Made by a program: the position numbers and the translations under genes
DNA from: a virus
Taxonomy: Duplodnaviria > Caudoviricetes
IMG/VR virus record: IMGVR_UViG_3300031772_000046
Location: 1-55,603 of that record
Strand: one strand, 5' to 3'
DNA: 55,603 bases
In this document: positions 14,623-54,323 of the stretch, piece by piece
Numbering within the stretch: the stretch's first letter is position 1
Layout: each line of letters begins with the position of its first letter
Notes under the pieces: generated by a model
The model's input: the letters and a program-made list of their open reading frames with translations, nothing else
What the model was told of the DNA's origin: nothing
Databases searched by the model: none

Positions 14623-14697
14623 TGGCTGAGGCGGCACGGGTCGAACGTGCGTTGACGGGTTCAAGGCCCGGCGTCCTACCGGCTAGACGACGCCTCA
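14623..14697 (-). tRNA. tRNA-Gln(UUG) with C33
   Basis: U1:A72, G73, encoded CCA, T-loop TTCGACC, anticodon loop CCTTGAA. Confidence 0.9.
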
Positions 14698-19456: not shown

Positions 19457-19530
19457 TGGTGGAGCGGCGCGGACTTGAACCGCGATCTCCTGGGTGCAGA
19501 CCAGGAATTCTCCCGTTGAACTACCGTCCC
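19457..19530 (-). tRNA. tRNA-Ala(UGC) with C33
   Basis: G3:U70, A73, CCA, loop TCTGCAC on a perfect CCTGG/CCAGG stem. Confidence 0.9.
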
Positions 19531-19535
19531 AAAGA

Positions 19536-19610
19536 TGGTGGGCGCGGGAGGAATCGAACCTCTATCGCGCGGCTTAAAGGGCCGCCGCTCTACCGTTGAG
19601 CTACGCGTCC
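19536..19610 (-). tRNA. tRNA-Lys(UUU) with C33
   Basis: Cloverleaf; loop CCTTTAA on a perfect GCGGC/GCCGC stem; A73; CCA. Confidence 0.92.
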
Positions 19611-24499: not shown

Positions 24500-24501
24500 C
24501 A

Positions 24502-24572
24502 GCCGAAACCCCCGTCCACGCGGGCGGGGAGTCCGCCGGGAGTGGTCGCCCGGCGCTGATGAGGTAGACCAC
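24502..24572 (+). ncRNA. Type II hammerhead ribozyme with loop I pseudoknot
   Basis: GCC-GAAA-stem III-GTC^-stem I (CGCCGGG/CCCGGCG)-CTGATGA-GGT; loop GTGGTC pairs with 3' GACCAC; predicted cut after 24533. Confidence 0.95.
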
Positions 24573-24591
24573 ATACGAGGAGGGGTTGAGC

Positions 24592-46298: not shown

Positions 46299-46481
46299 TC
46301 ACACCCCCTCGCAGACGATAAGGTCGCCCGCGTTCATCGTCAGGTGCCACTCACCGCATTCCGTGCAGTTGCCCCACCGGAGGGGACATTCTTTTGGTGA
46401 CACCTGCGCGCCCACGATCTCCCCGAGATCATCACGGAAGAACTCGGGGGCGAAGATGTAGCCGGAATGGTAAGGCTGCAT
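46299..46481 (-). CDS. Small zinc-ribbon protein
   Basis: Coupled to the recT stop. Confidence 0.55.
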   Translation of the reverse strand: MQPYHSGYIFAPEFFRDDLGEIVGAQVSPKECPLRWGNCTECGEWHLTMNAGDLIVCEGV

Positions 46482-47344
46482 CAGACCAACTTGCCTGCCT
46501 CTAGAGGTTCCGCCACCGTCGGCCCAAGGTCGCCGCCCAGTACCTCGTAGGGCACGCTGATTGCATCATCGCCAAAGTCAGGCTTCTCGGAACCGACATC
46601 CGCAAGACTGGCCTTGATCGACTCGTCCTGCTGGATGCCGCGCACGATCTCTGCGGAGAGAGGTAGGAACGGCACAAGTGCGCGGATCACGGTTTTCCGG
46701 GCCATGGCGTTGTAGTCTGTGACCCACGGCCCCGAATCCTTGGCCTTGGAACGCTGCCTGCGGTCCTCAATGTCCTCGATGGACATGACTTTGAACGCAT
46801 GGCCGCCGTCCTTGAACATCGCGTAGGCGTAGAAGTGGGTGACGGGGCCTCGCTCTTTGGCGGCGGGCCGATGGGTCAGATCCTCATGTAGGCCGTACTC
46901 CCAGTGGAAGAAGTCTTCCTTATGAGCCTCCTCCGCGTAGATGGACAGAAGTTGGCCGGACCTCTGCGCAAGGCTGATGTAGCCACGGTAGCCGATGATG
47001 AACTGGACATCCTTGCTCCACGTCTCATGACCCTGGGCGTCCTTGCGCCGGCGGTTGAAGGGAACGAGGTAGCAATGGCCCAGAAGGCCCGGCTCAAGAC
47101 CCAACTGGGCGGCCTGCATCACGCCCCCAATGAGGCTCTGCACGTCGCAGTCCAGGAGGACCGGGTTCTCCCTGATCGTGGTCAGGGCAATGCGGATGAG
47201 CCGGTCGGCGGTCAGGTGCCTGGGAAGTGCGCGCCTGAACTCAGGCTCCATCTTCTGGAGCGCCTCCCGAATCGTCTGAATCGGCTTCTGGCCCTTGACC
47301 GGCTGCATGGCCTTGTCGGCCACCCTCTGTTTCAGGTCGTCCAT
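46481..47344 (-). CDS. recT: RecT single-strand annealing protein
   Basis: AQLGLEP..LGHCYLVPF, QFIIGYRG, SGPW..DY..MARKTV. Confidence 0.97.
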   Translation of the reverse strand: MDDLKQRVADKAMQPVKGQKPIQTIREALQKMEPEFRRALPRHLTADRLIRIALTTIRENPVLLDCDVQSLIGGVMQAAQLGLEPGLLGHCYLVPFNRRRKDAQGHETWSKDVQFIIGYRGYISLAQRSGQLLSIYAEEAHKEDFFHWEYGLHEDLTHRPAAKERGPVTHFYAYAMFKDGGHAFKVMSIEDIEDRRQRSKAKDSGPWVTDYNAMARKTVIRALVPFLPLSAEIVRGIQQDESIKASLADVGSEKPDFGDDAISVPYEVLGGDLGPTVAEPLEAGKLV

Positions 47345-48246
47345 TCGTCGTCCCCGCCTTTCGCGGTGATAGTAAACCTGCGGAACGTGATCTCCTTGCC
47401 GTTCCTTTGTTGCGTGACGGCCTTCCACGCGACCCGCCACTCGCCGATGACCCCGACTTCGTTATAGCGCAACATCTGCTTCAGTCTGTTTTCGGCTAAC
47501 CGAACGTCTATCTCCGCCGTCCCTAGGCGTTCCTTGGCCTCCTGGCGGGCAACCACGAGGTCAAGTGCTTTTGGTCCAAGGGGGATGGTGTTGTCGCTGG
47601 GATCGTTGTAGAGGGATGCCAGAAGGTCAGAGCAGGCGTCGGAGCCGTCGGCCAAAGGCGGGGTCTTCGATTCTACCAGTTCCCAGAACCCGGCCTCGCG
47701 CTTGAGGATGTTGGCGATCACCTCGTCGTCGCGCGCGATGGGTTCCCGTGTGAACCAGAACTTGTTGCCGCCGATCAAGGCCGCAACGTAGGCTCTATCG
47801 GCCCCGGTCACGGCCATCTGGTGCTGAATCTGGATCATCACGCGGTCGGGGATCCTGTCGTCCCAGTCGGCCTTCCTGTATTCCGACGTGCTCTTGCACT
47901 CAAGGACGGCCCTGCCATCGTTGCCGTCCAGGACCACGTAATCGAGGTTGGCGAGAACGAATGGGTACTCTGAATGCTGCAATATCGCCCACTTGCGGCG
48001 GATCCTGAAACCCGTCTTGGCGGCGAATTCCTTGGCGATCACGGGTTCAAGTTGCTGGCCCCAGTAGGCCGCCTCTGACTGTTCGTCTTCCGGCAGGAGG
48101 TTGAGCTTGTCCAGGAACAGGTGCATCTCGGAATGAAACGGGTCAACGCCGAATAGGATCGGGGCGTCAGAAGCACCAATACCTTTGCGCCTCCAGGCAA
48201 GCCATTCATCACGGGGCATGTTCTTCGTGGAAACGAGGATCTTCAT
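47332..48246 (-). CDS. YqaJ-family (lambda-type) exonuclease
   Basis: WRRKGIGASD, ANLD, LECKS, QIQHQM. Confidence 0.96.
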   Translation of the reverse strand: MKILVSTKNMPRDEWLAWRRKGIGASDAPILFGVDPFHSEMHLFLDKLNLLPEDEQSEAAYWGQQLEPVIAKEFAAKTGFRIRRKWAILQHSEYPFVLANLDYVVLDGNDGRAVLECKSTSEYRKADWDDRIPDRVMIQIQHQMAVTGADRAYVAALIGGNKFWFTREPIARDDEVIANILKREAGFWELVESKTPPLADGSDACSDLLASLYNDPSDNTIPLGPKALDLVVARQEAKERLGTAEIDVRLAENRLKQMLRYNEVGVIGEWRVAWKAVTQQRNGKEITFRRFTITAKGGDDEWTT

Positions 48247-48460
48247 TGGACGGCCCCCCGTCAGGCGTACCACTTGTGCGAGGCGCGGAATGTCACGACC
48301 CCAGCCCCGTAACCCAGCGAATCCAGGAGGTCGCACATCAAGTCGTCGGCGTCCAGGTGTGCGCATTCGGGGTCGCCGGGGCGACACGTCTCCGACATCT
48401 TCTTGGCAAACTCGTCGGGCGTCATCTTGGCCTTCCTCCCCGATGTCAGATTGGGAACCG

Positions 48461-48664
48461 CTACTCCGCCAAAGGGGCGCTGTGTTCCTGGATCTCCTCG
48501 TCAAGTTGCTGGATGGCCCCGATCAGGAGTGACCGCGCATGGGCCGGGTCGTCGCAGATGATGTTCAGGGTCCCGCCGTTGGGAGTGTAGAACACGACAC
48601 CGGGCGCGTGGGCAAGGCACAGCGAGTCAAGGCGCGTCGTACTGTAGATGTGGAAGGTTGCCAT
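48461..48664 (-). CDS. Hypothetical protein
   Basis: AAGGAGG RBS. Confidence 0.65.
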   Translation of the reverse strand: MATFHIYSTTRLDSLCLAHAPGVVFYTPNGGTLNIICDDPAHARSLLIGAIQQLDEEIQEHSAPLAE

Positions 48665-48724
48665 GAGTCAGACCTCCTTGCTAGCGCATCCTCGCCATGT
48701 CGGCCCCTTGGACACCAACTCTGC

Positions 48725-48988
48725 TGGCGGGCGGGGGCCGGGTTATCCGGCCCAGCGCGGGATAGGCGTGTAGCGACGCCTCGTTTTACGTCCTGCCCGG
48801 TATCCATCCTCCGCTTGCCATCGTGACTCCCCGTAGGGTCCTCATCCATGGGAAGCTACTCGTCAGTACTCCGATGGTTCGCATCACCGAGCTTGTGGCC
48901 TGCCTACCCGTTTAGGGGCTGTGCCCTCAGTACTAAGCAGGTTCTCCCGCGTTCGATTCACACAGGCGTTGTGTCGCCCCGCCCGCCA
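48725..48988 (-). ncRNA. About 265-nt structured RNA with tRNA/tmRNA-like outer frame
   Basis: 12-bp terminal stem TGGCGGGCGGGG/CCCCGCCCGCCA, 5' hairpin, CGCGGGA/TCCCGCG helix enclosing multibranch domains, stacked 3' hairpin GCCGG-ATAAC-CCGGC. Confidence 0.7.
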
Positions 48989-48995
48989 AACTTGT

Positions 48996-49131
48996 CCTCA
49001 CGGGGGCTGGATTTGAACCAACTTTGGCGCCATCGGCCTCCCTGTTCTTGCCGCCGACTATATTGCCAGCGGTTCCAAGACGGTCGCGCCTTGAGGCTTT
49101 CAGCGTGTGCCCACCACGCCGCCCCGTGAGG
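48996..49131 (-). ncRNA. About 135-nt tRNA-like RNA with extended central arm
   Basis: CCTCACGGGG/CCCCGTGAGG stem, D-like arm CGTG-GTGGGCA-CACG, canonical T-arm GTTGG-TTCAAAT-CCAGC, no anticodon arm and no CCA. Confidence 0.8.
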
Positions 49132-49138
49132 CGAAATA

Positions 49139-49378
49139 CTACTGGGCGTTGTCGATCTCGTCGGCGTAGACGCGGTACTTGTCGGCCAAGGCCTTGCGTG
49201 CCTCCTGCTCTGTCTCCGCCGCCGCGTTGTAGGCGGGTACAGACGTTGCCTCCGCCGTCCAGCGCACACCGTCTTCGGTCCAATGCCGCCCGATGATCAC
49301 TCGCACGCCCGATTCCTCCTTCTCGGGGTCAAAGTCAGCGAGATGTGCCAGTCCGAACACGGCGTCATGCTCCATCAT
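49139..49378 (-). CDS. HicB-like domain protein
   Basis: EDGVRWTAEATSVP....AETEQEARKAL. Confidence 0.6.
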   Translation of the reverse strand: MMEHDAVFGLAHLADFDPEKEESGVRVIIGRHWTEDGVRWTAEATSVPAYNAAAETEQEARKALADKYRVYADEIDNAQ

Positions 49379-49380
49379 CC

Positions 49381-49584
49381 CTACGCCGCCTCCTCCACGC
49401 CTCGCAAGCGCGCCGCACGCATGATCAGGGCGTTGTTCGCGGTGTCGTAGAACACGTCCACCTGATCACCGGGTTTCAGACCCAAGGGGCCTCGCGCACG
49501 GACCGGGATGTAAACGCGGCCCAATTTGTCGATCTTGAGCGTGCCCGCCCACAGCAACGTGCGCGAAAAGTCAGTCGGCTTCAC
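49381..49584 (-). CDS. AbrB/MazE/SpoVT-family DNA-binding protein
   Basis: KIDKLGRVYIP...R..LGLKPGD.V. Confidence 0.9.
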   Translation of the reverse strand: MKPTDFSRTLLWAGTLKIDKLGRVYIPVRARGPLGLKPGDQVDVFYDTANNALIMRAARLRGVEEAA

Positions 49585-49604
49585 GTTCCTACCTCCTCGC
49601 GCTC

Positions 49605-49856
49605 TCAGTCTTGGGCAAAGAAGCGTTGCACGGCTTCCACATCTTCTGGGCGACAGTACAAAATGCTGGCGTCCCAGTAGTCCGGCCCATCGTCGAAGTA
49701 CTTGGCAAAGACGACGCCCAGCGCCTCAGCTTTGTGGAAATCGTCGTGCCACATCGGCGCCTCGAAGGTGTACAGGTCCACGTTCCGGCCCTCAATTACC
49801 TCAACTTCATGCTTGGGATTCTCGCGCTCAGCCACGTCTCTACCTCCTCGCTGCAT
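49605..49856 (-). CDS. Hypothetical protein
   Basis: ORF packing. Confidence 0.6.
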   Translation of the reverse strand: MQRGGRDVAERENPKHEVEVIEGRNVDLYTFEAPMWHDDFHKAEALGVVFAKYFDDGPDYWDASILYCRPEDVEAVQRFFAQD

Positions 49857-49953
49857 TCTCGGGCCGCGCCGCCATGGTCACAAGCGCGACCACGTACTCT
49901 CGGCCACGAAGAGACTTGCCAACCACGGCGACCATAGGGGCACCTCCTACCGC

Positions 49954-50364
49954 TTACTTGCCCGTTAGGGCACGCAAAATCGTCTGAAGCGCGTAGTACT
50001 CGGGATTGATGAAGTGGCCCGCCCCCGTGGTGACGCAGGAAACGAGCAGACCGACTATGAGTACCGCGCCGCCCGCAAGAAACACCGTCACGGGAATTAC
50101 CCCCTCATCCTCGCTCCAGTCCGTCCTGCGCAGGTAGCGTAGACCGAACCGTAGGCCCACAGACCAGACGGCGATGAGGAGGAGGGTGGAGGCAAGCAGC
50201 GTGAACGCCTCCACGATCTGCTGCCGCACAAGGATCGCCCACACATGCTGCGCCGTTGGCCCGAGGACGCCACCCACCTTGTCCACGATGGGGCCAAGTC
50301 GCTTGCCGACCTCATCCAGGACCGCGCCAACCTCTGTGGAGATCGGGGTCGCCATCAAGGGCAC
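49954..50364 (-). CDS. Two-TM membrane protein
   Basis: W.ILVRQ...NPEYYAL. Confidence 0.75.
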   Translation of the reverse strand: MPLMATPISTEVGAVLDEVGKRLGPIVDKVGGVLGPTAQHVWAILVRQQIVEAFTLLASTLLLIAVWSVGLRFGLRYLRRTDWSEDEGVIPVTVFLAGGAVLIVGLLVSCVTTGAGHFINPEYYALQTILRALTGK

Positions 50365-50367
50365 CTC

Positions 50368-50571
50368 CTACCAGCCGATTCGTTTCAGCCCTGTCGCGCC
50401 GCAGACGGGACACTTCACCGGGACGTTGTTGGGCTGCATATGGCCGGGGTCTTGCCAGTCCATCTCCGCGCCGCATTTGTCGCATAGGACTCCCGCGCTT
50501 CTTTGGCGGCGGTTGTGTTCCGAAAGGGTCGGCCTCAGATTCGGCATCTTGTACTCACTCTCGGGGTTCAT
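50368..50571 (-). CDS. Zinc-ribbon protein (paralog of 50761..51015)
   Basis: PTL.E.N...AGV.CDKCGAEM. Confidence 0.7.
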   Translation of the reverse strand: MNPESEYKMPNLRPTLSEHNRRQRSAGVLCDKCGAEMDWQDPGHMQPNNVPVKCPVCGATGLKRIGW

Positions 50572-50585
50572 GGGGGCACCTCCCG

Positions 50586-53133: not shown

Positions 53134-54027
53134 ATGAGGCCCGAGTTCGTGGATTGGGCACGATCCGAAAGGGGTGTGGCGCCCGATTCTCTGAGGACGT
53201 ATCTTTACGGCATCAGCAAGCTTGACCGGGCGGCGGCGGGTGACGACCTCGACATAGACCACCTGGACAAGGGGCAATTGCGCCACTACATCGGGGTCAT
53301 GTATGATCGGTTCAGCAACGTCAGCACGCGCCTCACGATAGTGAGCGGCATAAAGAGGTACTACGAGTTTCTGCAAAAGGAGGGCCTGCGTGCGGATAAC
53401 CCGGCCCGCGACTTCCGGGCCGTGGCCCGGCACGGGGAGTTGCCCCGCATCCCCAGCTTCGCGGACGTGGAGCGGTTCCTGCATCTGCCGCCCGTCTCTG
53501 AAACCCCCTGGGCGCGCCGCGACTATCTCATCAAGTGGCTACTCGCGGGGTGCGCCATCAGGCGGGGCGAGGTTCGTGAGCTTCGCGTCGGCGATGTCGG
53601 TCTGGAGGAACGAACGCTGCGCGTTCTGGGCAAGGGCAGGAAGACCCGCATTGTGCCCCTAGGAGACCGACTGGTGGCCCTCCTCGGAGTCTACCTTGAG
53701 GATATTCGCCCGAGGCTTGCCCGGGGAGGCCTGCGGCACGGCCGTGCCCCCACCGACTACCTGCTCTTGGGGTGGAGGGGCGGCCCCCTGGCTAGGGACT
53801 GCGTTCGTCACGCCCTGGTGAACATCGCCAAGCATTACGGGGTGCCTCCGATTTCGCCGCATAAGTTCAGACATGCGGCGGCGCGGCGGATGATCATCGG
53901 CGGCGCCAGTCTGCGGGCGGTGCAGAAGGTGCTGGGGCACTCCAAGGTCGCGACCACGGAGGTCTACACATTCATGTACGATGAGGAGGTTGGCGACCAG
54001 GTGCGCCGGGCGAACCCCTGGGCGTGA
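53134..54027 (+). CDS. XerC/XerD-like tyrosine recombinase
   Basis: R..E, GKG.K.R.VP, HKFRH, LGH...TT..Y; 297 aa with no arm-binding domain. Confidence 0.96.
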   Translation: MRPEFVDWARSERGVAPDSLRTYLYGISKLDRAAAGDDLDIDHLDKGQLRHYIGVMYDRFSNVSTRLTIVSGIKRYYEFLQKEGLRADNPARDFRAVARHGELPRIPSFADVERFLHLPPVSETPWARRDYLIKWLLAGCAIRRGEVRELRVGDVGLEERTLRVLGKGRKTRIVPLGDRLVALLGVYLEDIRPRLARGGLRHGRAPTDYLLLGWRGGPLARDCVRHALVNIAKHYGVPPISPHKFRHAAARRMIIGGASLRAVQKVLGHSKVATTEVYTFMYDEEVGDQVRRANPWA

Positions 54028-54034
54028 AGGGGAA

Positions 54035-54143
54035 AGCCGCCGCCGTATTCGCCTCCCGTGGGGGCCTTGCTGCATGGCTGCGATTACGGGCGGCGTGGCG
54101 GCGGCTACGCCTTTATATTAGGACACTTTCCCGGCAGCGTCAA
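54035..54143 (-). ncRNA. Candidate small RNA with its own promoter, convergent to the recombinase
   Basis: TTGACG-17nt-TAATAT followed by a long hairpin closed by AGCCGCCGCC/GGCGGCGGCT. Confidence 0.45.
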
Positions 54144-54203
54144 GCGATACTAGTTGCTGGCGGCGTGAACATCCTCCTTCCAGGCATCCACCCCCTAAAA
54201 TAG

Positions 54204-54236
54204 CAAAAGCCCCCGCCTTGCGGCGAGGGGCTTTTG
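54204..54236. terminator. Bidirectional intrinsic terminator
   Basis: CAAAAGCCCC-CGCC..GGCG-A-GGGGCTTTTG. Confidence 0.85.
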
Positions 54237-54323
54237 TGCGGGCCGTAGACGGCCCTAGATGCGTTTGTCCGGTTGTAGGCTAAGTGAGTAGGGCCAAGGC
54301 CGTTTCGGTTCAGGGCGGTGCCT

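Follow-up and report, generated by a model that had tools for sequence, protein, structure and literature searches.

We identified a structured RNA element of 264 nucleotides (nt), here called element B, on the minus strand at positions 48725–48988 of a temperate tailed phage genome (IMG/VR record IMGVR_UViG_3300031772_000046; "the window" denotes the whole analysed stretch of 55,603 bp), and we are very confident that it is a member of a so far unnamed family of phage RNAs. The members of this family share helices that covary between phages of different bacteria, and they recur beside tRNA genes on the same strand. A covariance model built from nine members with the window sequence excluded (R2) has its sole match in the 55.6-kb window at 48754–48959 (-), with 70.7 bits and an E-value of 6.2e-13 across model positions 1–156 of 156, and a ten-member model (R1) gives 112.9 bits on B. 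This full-length match comes with the conserved "gamma" block of the family, with two helices (P2 and P3) in their family positions, and with the motif AAUC after the hairpin that lies 5' of P2. B thus agrees with an earlier, sequence-only reading of this stretch in being a structured non-coding RNA (ncRNA) outside Rfam 15, with a frame resembling tRNA and transfer-messenger RNA (tmRNA) and a multi-domain insert.

Conserved fold and covariation of element B

Element B consists of a cloverleaf-like outer frame around a conserved core (48754–48959, matched by both R1 and R2); all of the parts described here lie on the minus strand. The frame, which recurs in homologues, is closed by an acceptor-like helix, P1, whose 5' strand (48977–48988) forms a perfect 12-nt inverted repeat with its 3' strand (48725–48736, 100% complementary), and the minimum free energy (MFE) fold closes the ends in the same way. 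A T-like hairpin with a non-canonical T-loop (GGGCCGG-AUAAC-CCGGCCC, 48735–48753) is stacked on P1, and a D-like hairpin (ACACA-ACGCC-UGUGU, 48960–48974) is read from the sequence at the 5' side, where the window's own MFE fold favours a competing 4-bp hairpin. The 5' hairpin is followed by GAAUCGAA (48952–48959), which holds the AAUC motif (48955–48958, consensus UAAUCAGG) just 5' of P2.

The core is enclosed by P2, in which CGCGGGA (48945–48951) pairs with UCCCGCG (48756–48762) as 7 continuous bp, without the bulged A of most members. Within it lies P3, of 8 bp, with CCUGCUUA (48934–48941) as its 5' strand and UAGGCAGG (48899–48906) as its 3' strand. The gamma block (GUAAAACGAGGCGUCGCUACACGCCUA, 48763–48789), which includes the hairpin AGGCG/CGCCU, is the most conserved part of the family and stands directly 5' of the 3' strand of P2. 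The terminal helix, the 3' hairpin on it, the 5' hairpin followed by GAAUCGAA, and the P2 helix around about 180 nt had all been described in the sequence-only reading and are present, P2 covarying strongly in the family. A TAGTACT/AGTACTG helix that had been proposed to close a multibranch domain was not confirmed, and the consensus fold favours P3 in its place; that helix would cross P3 as a pseudoknot, for which a possible counterpart is readable in the Bacillus member (GGUAUU/GAUACU).

The suggestion that no convincing open reading frame covers the element is borne out by base composition. The GC content at the three codon positions is 0.65/0.67/0.58 in the B module, against about 0.6/0.41/0.8 in the adjoining genes, and the 474-nt gap that holds B shows no codon-position GC periodicity, unlike every neighbouring gene.

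An iterative homologue search with covariation analysis showed that base pairing in P2 and P3 is kept by compensatory changes. The covariance models cover the core, to which the covariation statistics apply; P1 and the D-like and T-like hairpins are based on single-sequence folds and on reading. Applied to ten cores, RNAalifold by itself recovered P2, P3 and the gamma hairpin; of the 17 pairs, 10 show compensatory changes. With a 21-pair structure imposed on the ten-sequence alignment, 88.6% of cells are paired, against 34–48% with slid partners, and 14 of the 21 pairs have changes on both sides, a count equalled by none of 500 shuffles (covariation score 0.385 vs 0.195). Seven of the eight pairs of P3 are changed on both sides, and the inner pairs of P2 vary between AU, GC and UA, between CG, GC and AU, and so on. 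Similar values were obtained for 56 distinct IMG/VR sequences, in an alignment that was fitted to the model and so favours the model's pairs: 85.6% of cells are paired (34–42% with slid partners), 214 cells are changed on both sides (86.5 +/- 9.3 expected), and the covariation score of 0.372, against 0.141, is equalled by 0 of 500 shuffles.

The AAUC motif (A31 A32 T33 C34) is invariant in a seven-sequence alignment (A4) and conserved in a further one (A5), and the gamma block is invariant in alignments A4 to A6; in the IMG/VR set, by contrast, the search pattern itself forces the gamma hairpin to be invariant. B is identical to the family in the invariant columns of A4 and A5.

We additionally identified close variants of the element in other genomic contexts. 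The stretch is present in sediment metagenome runs. In a metatranscriptome (X6), a 486-nt contig matches only 48699–48991, with 6 differences in 293 nt (98% identity) and unrelated flanks on both sides, and in X6 the 79-aa gene that neighbours B in the window shows 34 differences as well as an insertion of 21 nt. A DNA contig (X4) matches 48672–48998 and then diverges. The restriction of these matches to B, together with the diverged neighbours, indicates that B moves as one module, much better conserved than the genes around it; a 3' tail (48699–48724) moves with it into the other context. The X6 gaps at 48000–48698, 48992–49111 and 49391–49648 are uncovered sequence and no sign of absence or silence, and an X4 joint at 49061–49458, with 20 nt on one side, was taken as belonging to another organism. 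Of the four X6 substitutions listed, those at 48936 and 48934 lie in P3 and leave its pairing intact (one U-G to C-G, one A-U to G-U); the third (index 182, partner U115) turns A-U into G-U in a pair of the window's MFE fold only, within the variable region, and the fourth lies in a loop. The G-U outcomes are consistent with pairing on the minus strand.

Distribution, shared architecture and genomic niche

A blastn search of INPHARED phages with a long query gave no match at E 1e-5, and the first true relatives were intergenic matches found by relaxed blastn against plasmids. They lie in a Bacillus replicon of 215 kb and a lambdoid phage-plasmid of E. coli, the latter with the element between Q and the holin gene. 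Using these as queries at relaxed E-values, we reached further members in the E. coli phages CUS-3, IME10, Huey and Jgk1, in phages of Hafnia, Aeromonas, Acinetobacter, Achromobacter and Pseudomonas, and in Listeria phage B025, as well as a second subtype in phages of Rhodococcus, Arthrobacter and Stenotrophomonas. R1 recovers second-subtype members outside its training set (37.1 and 34.7 bits) and a circularly permuted member in part. The gamma pattern (GUAAAACGAGGCG-N8-CGCCUA) is present in at least 120 IMG/VR contigs, with 85 distinct cores among them, the counts over 120 loci given below being those of the contigs listed; R1 matches 84 of 100 searched gamma-pattern loci at E <= 0.001. The E. 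coli form occurs in 119 of 5426 complete E. coli genomes (about 2%), with no annotated feature among the 8 matches listed. Of the phage members named here, none carries an RNA annotation, and several are overlapped by "hypothetical protein" calls.

Other routes to relatives were largely unproductive. The 67-aa and 79-aa proteins encoded on either side of B have no relatives in IMG/VR, a search by the nearby YqaJ gene alone gave one truncated locus, and an nhmmer search of 160 YqaJ loci (from genomes and IMG/VR) with the gap sequence gave no relative except two weak hits. Patterns from the 5' junction, exact or coded as R/Y, were found nowhere in IMG/VR, and in JGI metagenomes they recovered a single near-identical phage (L163), whose gap sequence is unchanged (0 differences) and so uninformative for covariation. 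When the gap was compared by blastn with 210 genomes from a single Bacillota class and with five single genomes, the only matches were short GC-rich ones within coding DNA, taken as chance. Separately, 26–28 nt of the 3' end of B (GGAUAACCCGGCCCCCGCCCGCCAGC) match three loci (L164, L169 and L171, in genomes G202, G192 and G061); the L164 match reads, from one translated stretch, as helicase-like (AddA-type) coding DNA, and all three were likewise taken as GC-rich chance similarity. We found no description of the family in our searches of the literature; a catalogue whose available portion reports 8,495 candidate RNAs predicted from IMG/VR (PMC10690425) may include it.

The members share a common plan. 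From the 5' end, P1 (7–13 bp) is followed by 1–3 nt, a D-like hairpin, (U)AAUCAGG, the first strand of P2 (usually 4 bp, a bulged A and 4 bp) and GAA. P3, of 8 bp, then carries a small capped hairpin, with CCCUAAACG in B and in the Bacillus, Acinetobacter and Pseudomonas M1 members, and leads into a variable arm. After this arm come GAUGUAAAACG, the gamma hairpin AGGCG-N8-CGCCU, preceded by GUAAAAC, an A, the 3' strand of P2, a T-like hairpin and the 3' strand of P1. P2 thereby sits at the anticodon-stem position of the frame. Single-sequence MFE folds form a closing helix of 4–11 pairs in all ten framed members, with a different sequence in each. A D-like hairpin, also of differing sequence, stands just before AAUC in seven members (L280, L281, L288, L289, L294, L295 and L287), and a T-like hairpin precedes the 3' strand of P1 in the MFE folds of the window and of L280, L281, L288, L289, L291 and L295; that of L282 is seen by eye only (GCCGG/CCGGC), its MFE fold being otherwise, and that of L287 is imperfect.

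We observed two further kinds of conserved structure in the same loci. Shorter tRNA-like units, which have no gamma block, stand beside tRNA genes in L283 (1592–1723) and L286 (1327–1431 and 1518–1629) and share the enterobacterial frame GUGGUG-AAU-GCGCAGGCUGAUGCGC ... AAGCCGGAGAUCAGCACCGGC-CACCACA, which seems to host different inserts. A separate long hairpin, ACAACAGGTAAGAGCATTG...CAGTGCTCTTATCGTTGTGG, is conserved in many enterobacterial, Klebsiella and Acinetobacter phages (L281 2782–2860, L284 1505–1590, L286 1437–1525, L288 630–705), sometimes directly 5' of a family member and sometimes alone.

The family has a consistent genomic niche. A tRNA gene lies within 600 nt of the element in 39 of 120 loci, a lower bound as many loci are short, and in all 39 it is on the same strand; the corresponding count for randomly placed points in these loci is 265 of 2400 (11%). 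No protein family recurs as a neighbour in more than 6 of the 85 distinct loci. The link to a YqaJ-RecT module drawn in the sequence-only reading is therefore incidental: the family model has 0 matches in 100 YqaJ loci (L003–L102 of a set that runs on through L103–L162), and it is same-strand tRNAs that recur instead. R1 also has 0 matches in 100 IMG/VR loci picked for a T arm of the tRNA-fMet type.

Three loci place members within or beside tRNA and tmRNA genes or arrays. In Achromobacter phage JWDelta (L294), a permuted two-piece tmRNA gene (692–1076; RF04321, 95.8 bits) has its intervening segment filled by a family member (789–940). In Stenotrophomonas virus Jojan60 (L296), a second-subtype member is flanked on one side by a tRNA array and on the other by an 83-nt tmRNA-like gene that has the tRNA-like domain only (977–1059; RF00023, 61.8 bits). 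In Pseudomonas jumbo phage D6 (L290), the permuted member (775–885) lies inside a tRNA array, beside a gene annotated "tRNA-OTHER"; here the gamma block and the 3' strand of P2 come before UAAUCAG and the 5' strand of P2, and a new closing stem replaces P3. The available part of the tmRNA database description (PMC11915505) notes a tRNA or a repeat in the intervening sequences of permuted tmRNAs and does not mention this element. As side observations, sub-threshold matches to the small RNAs rliG and rli62 in Listeria phage B025 (L291, 534–771 and 1057–1107) end where the family member begins, and an mcrA RNA motif is found downstream of that member.

In the window, B occupies the 474-nt gap between a 79-aa gene (minus strand, ending at 49139) and a 67-aa gene (minus strand, starting at 48664) with a good Shine-Dalgarno sequence, and it ends 60 nt before the latter. 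YqaJ (47332–48246, -) follows the 67-aa gene and a 54-aa gene, and RecT (46481–47440, -) follows YqaJ. No sigma-70-like promoter and no minus-strand terminator is predicted around the gap, and B is present in a single copy per record. The phage has about 61% GC, with terminase and portal genes in the left part of the window, an integrase at 53134–54027 (+), and genes for a DnaC-like loader, a helix-turn-helix protein, a holin and an amidase; its nearest protein relatives are from Bacillota, at no more than 51% identity. Minus-strand tRNA genes for Gln(UUG), Ala(UGC) and Lys(UUU) are found at 14623–14697, 19457–19530 and 19536–19610. After GC correction, no 264-nt window of the record is more stable than 54033–54296 (+) (z = -3.2), which lies in the integrase-holin interval and may be the attP region. 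The phage L163 (a JGI metagenome contig of 4536 nt), which is 99% identical, does not contain window positions 49948–50573 (a membrane protein and one zinc-ribbon gene), and has a region with a repetitive Pro/Ala/Trp-rich reading frame where the window has a different sequence.

A second tRNA-like element, element A (48997–49131, -), lies 8 nt upstream of B and was missed in the sequence-only reading. A 10-bp helix closes it, its D-like hairpin contains GG, and its T arm, at 49006–49022 (GUUGG-UUCAAAU-CCAGC), is canonical; in shuffled windows, T arms stacked on a 7-bp acceptor are expected at a rate of 0.17 per window. A 22-nt string across its T arm and acceptor is identical to phage tRNA-Met(CAT) genes, in comparison with which its 5' acceptor strand has a matching change. 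Its interior is not that of a tRNA, the anticodon arm being replaced by some 60 nt, and ARAGORN calls it only below threshold. Element A is outside the B family, R1 having no match on it, and in the X6 contig A does not adjoin B, positions 48992–49111 being uncovered in X6.

Comparison with known RNA classes

B belongs to none of the known classes with which we compared it, of which tmRNA is closest in shape and ROOL and GOLLD are closest in niche. Rfam 15 at gathering thresholds gives nothing at B, and at E <= 10 the only alignment is a 13-bit one to Hammerhead_II, against a gathering score of 37 (E 6.8), with helices reduced to 7 and 4 nt; we therefore rejected B as a type II hammerhead. A bona fide type II hammerhead ribozyme is present elsewhere in the window, in a GC-richer segment at 24501–24573 (+), with 58.8 bits.

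The likeness to tmRNA lies in an acceptor-like closing helix, a short element, a long P2 and a stacked hairpin around a large insert. The acceptor of B is 12 bp long against 7 bp, however, and its insert has nothing in common with the tmRNA pseudoknots. Searches with tmRNA models return no match to B at E <= 10, and ARAGORN -m calls none even at -ps70. The closing helix is all Watson-Crick, with no G3:U70, and the loop is AUAAC rather than one with UUC, in agreement with the sequence-only reading; the helix is followed by GCAG and not by CCA. None of the three minus-strand frames reads as a plausible tmRNA tag, which would have a resume codon and end in a hydrophobic C-terminus.

A tRNA gene, with or without an intron, was likewise rejected, as ARAGORN, run with default settings and with introns allowed, calls none on the minus strand and gives a forced sub-threshold call on the plus strand only, and Rfam has no tRNA match. 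Group I-intron tRNA genes resemble B in having a cloverleaf-like frame with a structured insert of 120–190 nt at the anticodon-loop position. Nevertheless, the insert of B is too short for the introns of such tRNA and tmRNA genes and an anticodon loop is not rebuildable, and Intron_gpI has no match to B at E <= 10 and none in the other members scanned (at gathering thresholds, or E <= 0.1). Known tmRNA introns lie in the T-loop, according to the part of PMC11915505 available.

ROOL and GOLLD are phage and prophage RNAs often found near tRNA islands, with no known function in the available part of PMC12286853, and the B family shares this niche. They are much larger (about 580 and >800 nt, figures only partly from the same source, PMC12286853) and differ in sequence and fold. 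No Rfam match to ROOL or GOLLD is found in B or in the other scanned members, and the ROOL, GOLLD, YrlA and C4 models have no match at E <= 10 in 48500–49300. The position of B among phage RNAs can also be judged against smaller examples: species 1 and 2 of T4, C4 of P1/P7 and CI of P4 are stable or regulatory RNAs in tRNA clusters or immunity regions, and are freed by RNase P since their ends mimic the acceptor and T arm of tRNA. All are much smaller than B, and they are set apart from it by description, except for C4, whose Rfam model has no match. YrlA, a bacterial Y RNA-like ncRNA with a tRNA-like domain, is also found in phages. It matches no member, its sole match (32 bits, gathering score 69) being to the ordinary tRNAs of D6, and we saw no Rsr gene context.

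Proposed processing and function, and alternative explanations

We lean, if only slightly, towards the view that B is a structured ncRNA gene that is freed by tRNA-processing enzymes and that bears a partner-binding core at its junction. B would be co-transcribed with its neighbours, here in a leftward early operon and elsewhere in tRNA arrays, late leaders and the spacer of a permuted tmRNA. The tRNA-like frame would then allow host RNase P on the 5' side, together with 3' trimming, to release a discrete stable RNA of about 210–270 nt; release by tRNA-processing enzymes is suggested by the cloverleaf-like frame and by the tRNA and tmRNA neighbourhood. The junction core would be the working part, and would bind a partner common to very different bacteria, as its conservation, its presence across three phyla and its tolerance of circular permutation suggest a compactly folded unit that acts on a universal partner. 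The identity of this partner is a matter of speculation, a component of tRNA, tmRNA or translation biology being most likely.

Several observations weigh against this view. The MFE of B is -119.5 kcal/mol (z = -4.03, 200 dinucleotide shuffles), but the GC-corrected z is only -2.14 against the phage's own 264-nt windows, 16 of 1258 of which, taken at a coarse step, fold equally well, and perfect inverted repeats of at least 12 nt within 400 nt are not rare in the window. Folding energy and inverted repeats alone are thus weak, and it is the homologues and their covariation that decide the reality of B. The gamma hairpin never varies, so that covariation neither supports nor contradicts it, and the stretch that separates P3 from the gamma block varies and has no settled fold, the MFE topology shifting when the four X6 substitutions are applied. 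Just one third of the loci have a tRNA within 600 nt. The JWDelta member has no T-like hairpin, the second subtype is closed by P2 alone without a tRNA-like frame, and the D6 member is permuted, which together indicate that the frame is dispensable for the job of the core. The non-canonical T-like hairpin and the lack of CCA make recognition of B by RNase P or other tRNA enzymes conjectural, and a discrete RNA species is a prediction from the sequence. Finally, the RNA-library depth of the B contig (37.8) is similar to that of the neighbouring genes (48.4 and 32.3), and the library may include carried-over DNA. Transcription of B is only weakly indicated, and the description of B as early-expressed, made in the sequence-only reading, went beyond what this one metatranscriptome contig can bear. 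The decoy, sponge or scaffold role put forward in that reading is likewise a guess.

A bolder interpretation, which we hold tentatively and think possible rather than probable, is that the family is a new functional RNA class with a universal target, either a processing or self-cleaving ribozyme that acts on tRNA and tmRNA precursors, or a tRNA-shaped mimic. Both the circular permutation and the member nested in a permuted tmRNA gene are in keeping with an autonomous, compact fold for which the position of the ends is unimportant. Were the mimic form true, the invariant core would capture a factor of translation or tRNA handling that is common to Actinomycetota, Bacillota and Pseudomonadota, for example blunting tRNA-targeting defences or redirecting tRNA processing.

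It is unlikely, in our estimation, that the core is specifically a small self-cleaving or catalytic RNA that cuts polycistronic tRNA, tmRNA or early transcripts. Hammerhead and hepatitis delta virus-like ribozymes cut transcripts in phage tRNA regions, and circular permutation, of which D6 offers a natural case, is a typical trait of small ribozymes. The core forms a compact junction of several helices with strict conservation in its joining strands (AAUC..., GAA, GUAAAAC, A) while its stems covary, it is found within tRNA arrays and in precisely the spacer whose removal a permuted tmRNA precursor requires, and the window phage carries a genuine hammerhead elsewhere. However, no Rfam 15 ribozyme family fits, the Hammerhead_II alignment being far below its gathering score, no cleavage site can be named, and at 150–200 nt the core is above the size of known small ribozymes.

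We regard as quite improbable an intron-like or mobile insert, at the anticodon-loop position of tRNA-like genes and in the tmRNA spacer, that is removed to yield a functional tRNA-like RNA. The conserved part is indeed the insert, and the frames differ and resemble different tRNAs, with a tRNA-Leu-like D arm in Listeria phage B025 and a GCGGGG/CCCCGC acceptor like that of tRNA-fMet in the window; the location matches that of bacterial tRNA introns, and the X6 element has unrelated flanks at 98% identity. Nevertheless, no member has a group I match, and the insert is shorter than known group I introns. P2 has 7–9 bp, often with a bulged A, where an anticodon stem has 5 bp, the residues next to P2 do not allow a 7-nt anticodon loop to be rebuilt, the T-like loops are non-canonical, ARAGORN makes no minus-strand call at B even with introns allowed and thresholds lowered, and the second subtype has no tRNA-like frame.

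More doubtful still is a cis-acting leader that would serve the downstream gene or operon through antitermination, mRNA stabilisation or translational control. The short distance from B to the start of the 67-aa gene, the position of lambdoid members in the late leader (the Q-holin interval), and a Shine-Dalgarno-like GAGGAGG in the X6 flank soon after the element are consistent with such a role. Against it, any one neighbour family is common to at most 6 of 85 loci, tRNA genes and not mRNAs follow many members, one member is inside a tmRNA gene, and neither promoter nor terminator is predicted around B on the minus strand.

Finally, a relic (a decayed tmRNA or tRNA gene, a DUF932 remnant or a repeat resembling a miniature inverted-repeat transposable element) is barely credible: weak nhmmer matches to a DUF932 gene upstream of YqaJ in L077 and L005 (E 0.12 and 0.16), the tmRNA-like frame and 12-bp terminal inverted repeats with different flanks speak for it, but compensatory changes across phyla are unexpected for a relic or a DNA repeat and largely refute it, and both the pseudogene and the repeat were rejected, as the PF06067 profile finds nothing in the record, a tblastn match is weak (E 2.9) with an internal stop and a second (E 45) is out of order, the record holds a single copy, and the conserved unit in X6 reaches 26 nt beyond one of the inverted repeats.

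Returning to B as a member of an ncRNA family, we note that clear covariation and a distribution across phages of at least three bacterial phyla are combined here with the lack of any Rfam model. A model for the family would improve the annotation of phage genomes, in which "hypothetical protein" calls overlap several members. Unlike ROOL and GOLLD, the family is small enough for easy biochemistry, and it has members in tractable phages of E. coli and Bacillus. The tRNA-like frame, the invariant core, and the existence of permuted and tmRNA-nested members thus lead to testable ideas on how phages handle tRNA and tmRNA biology.

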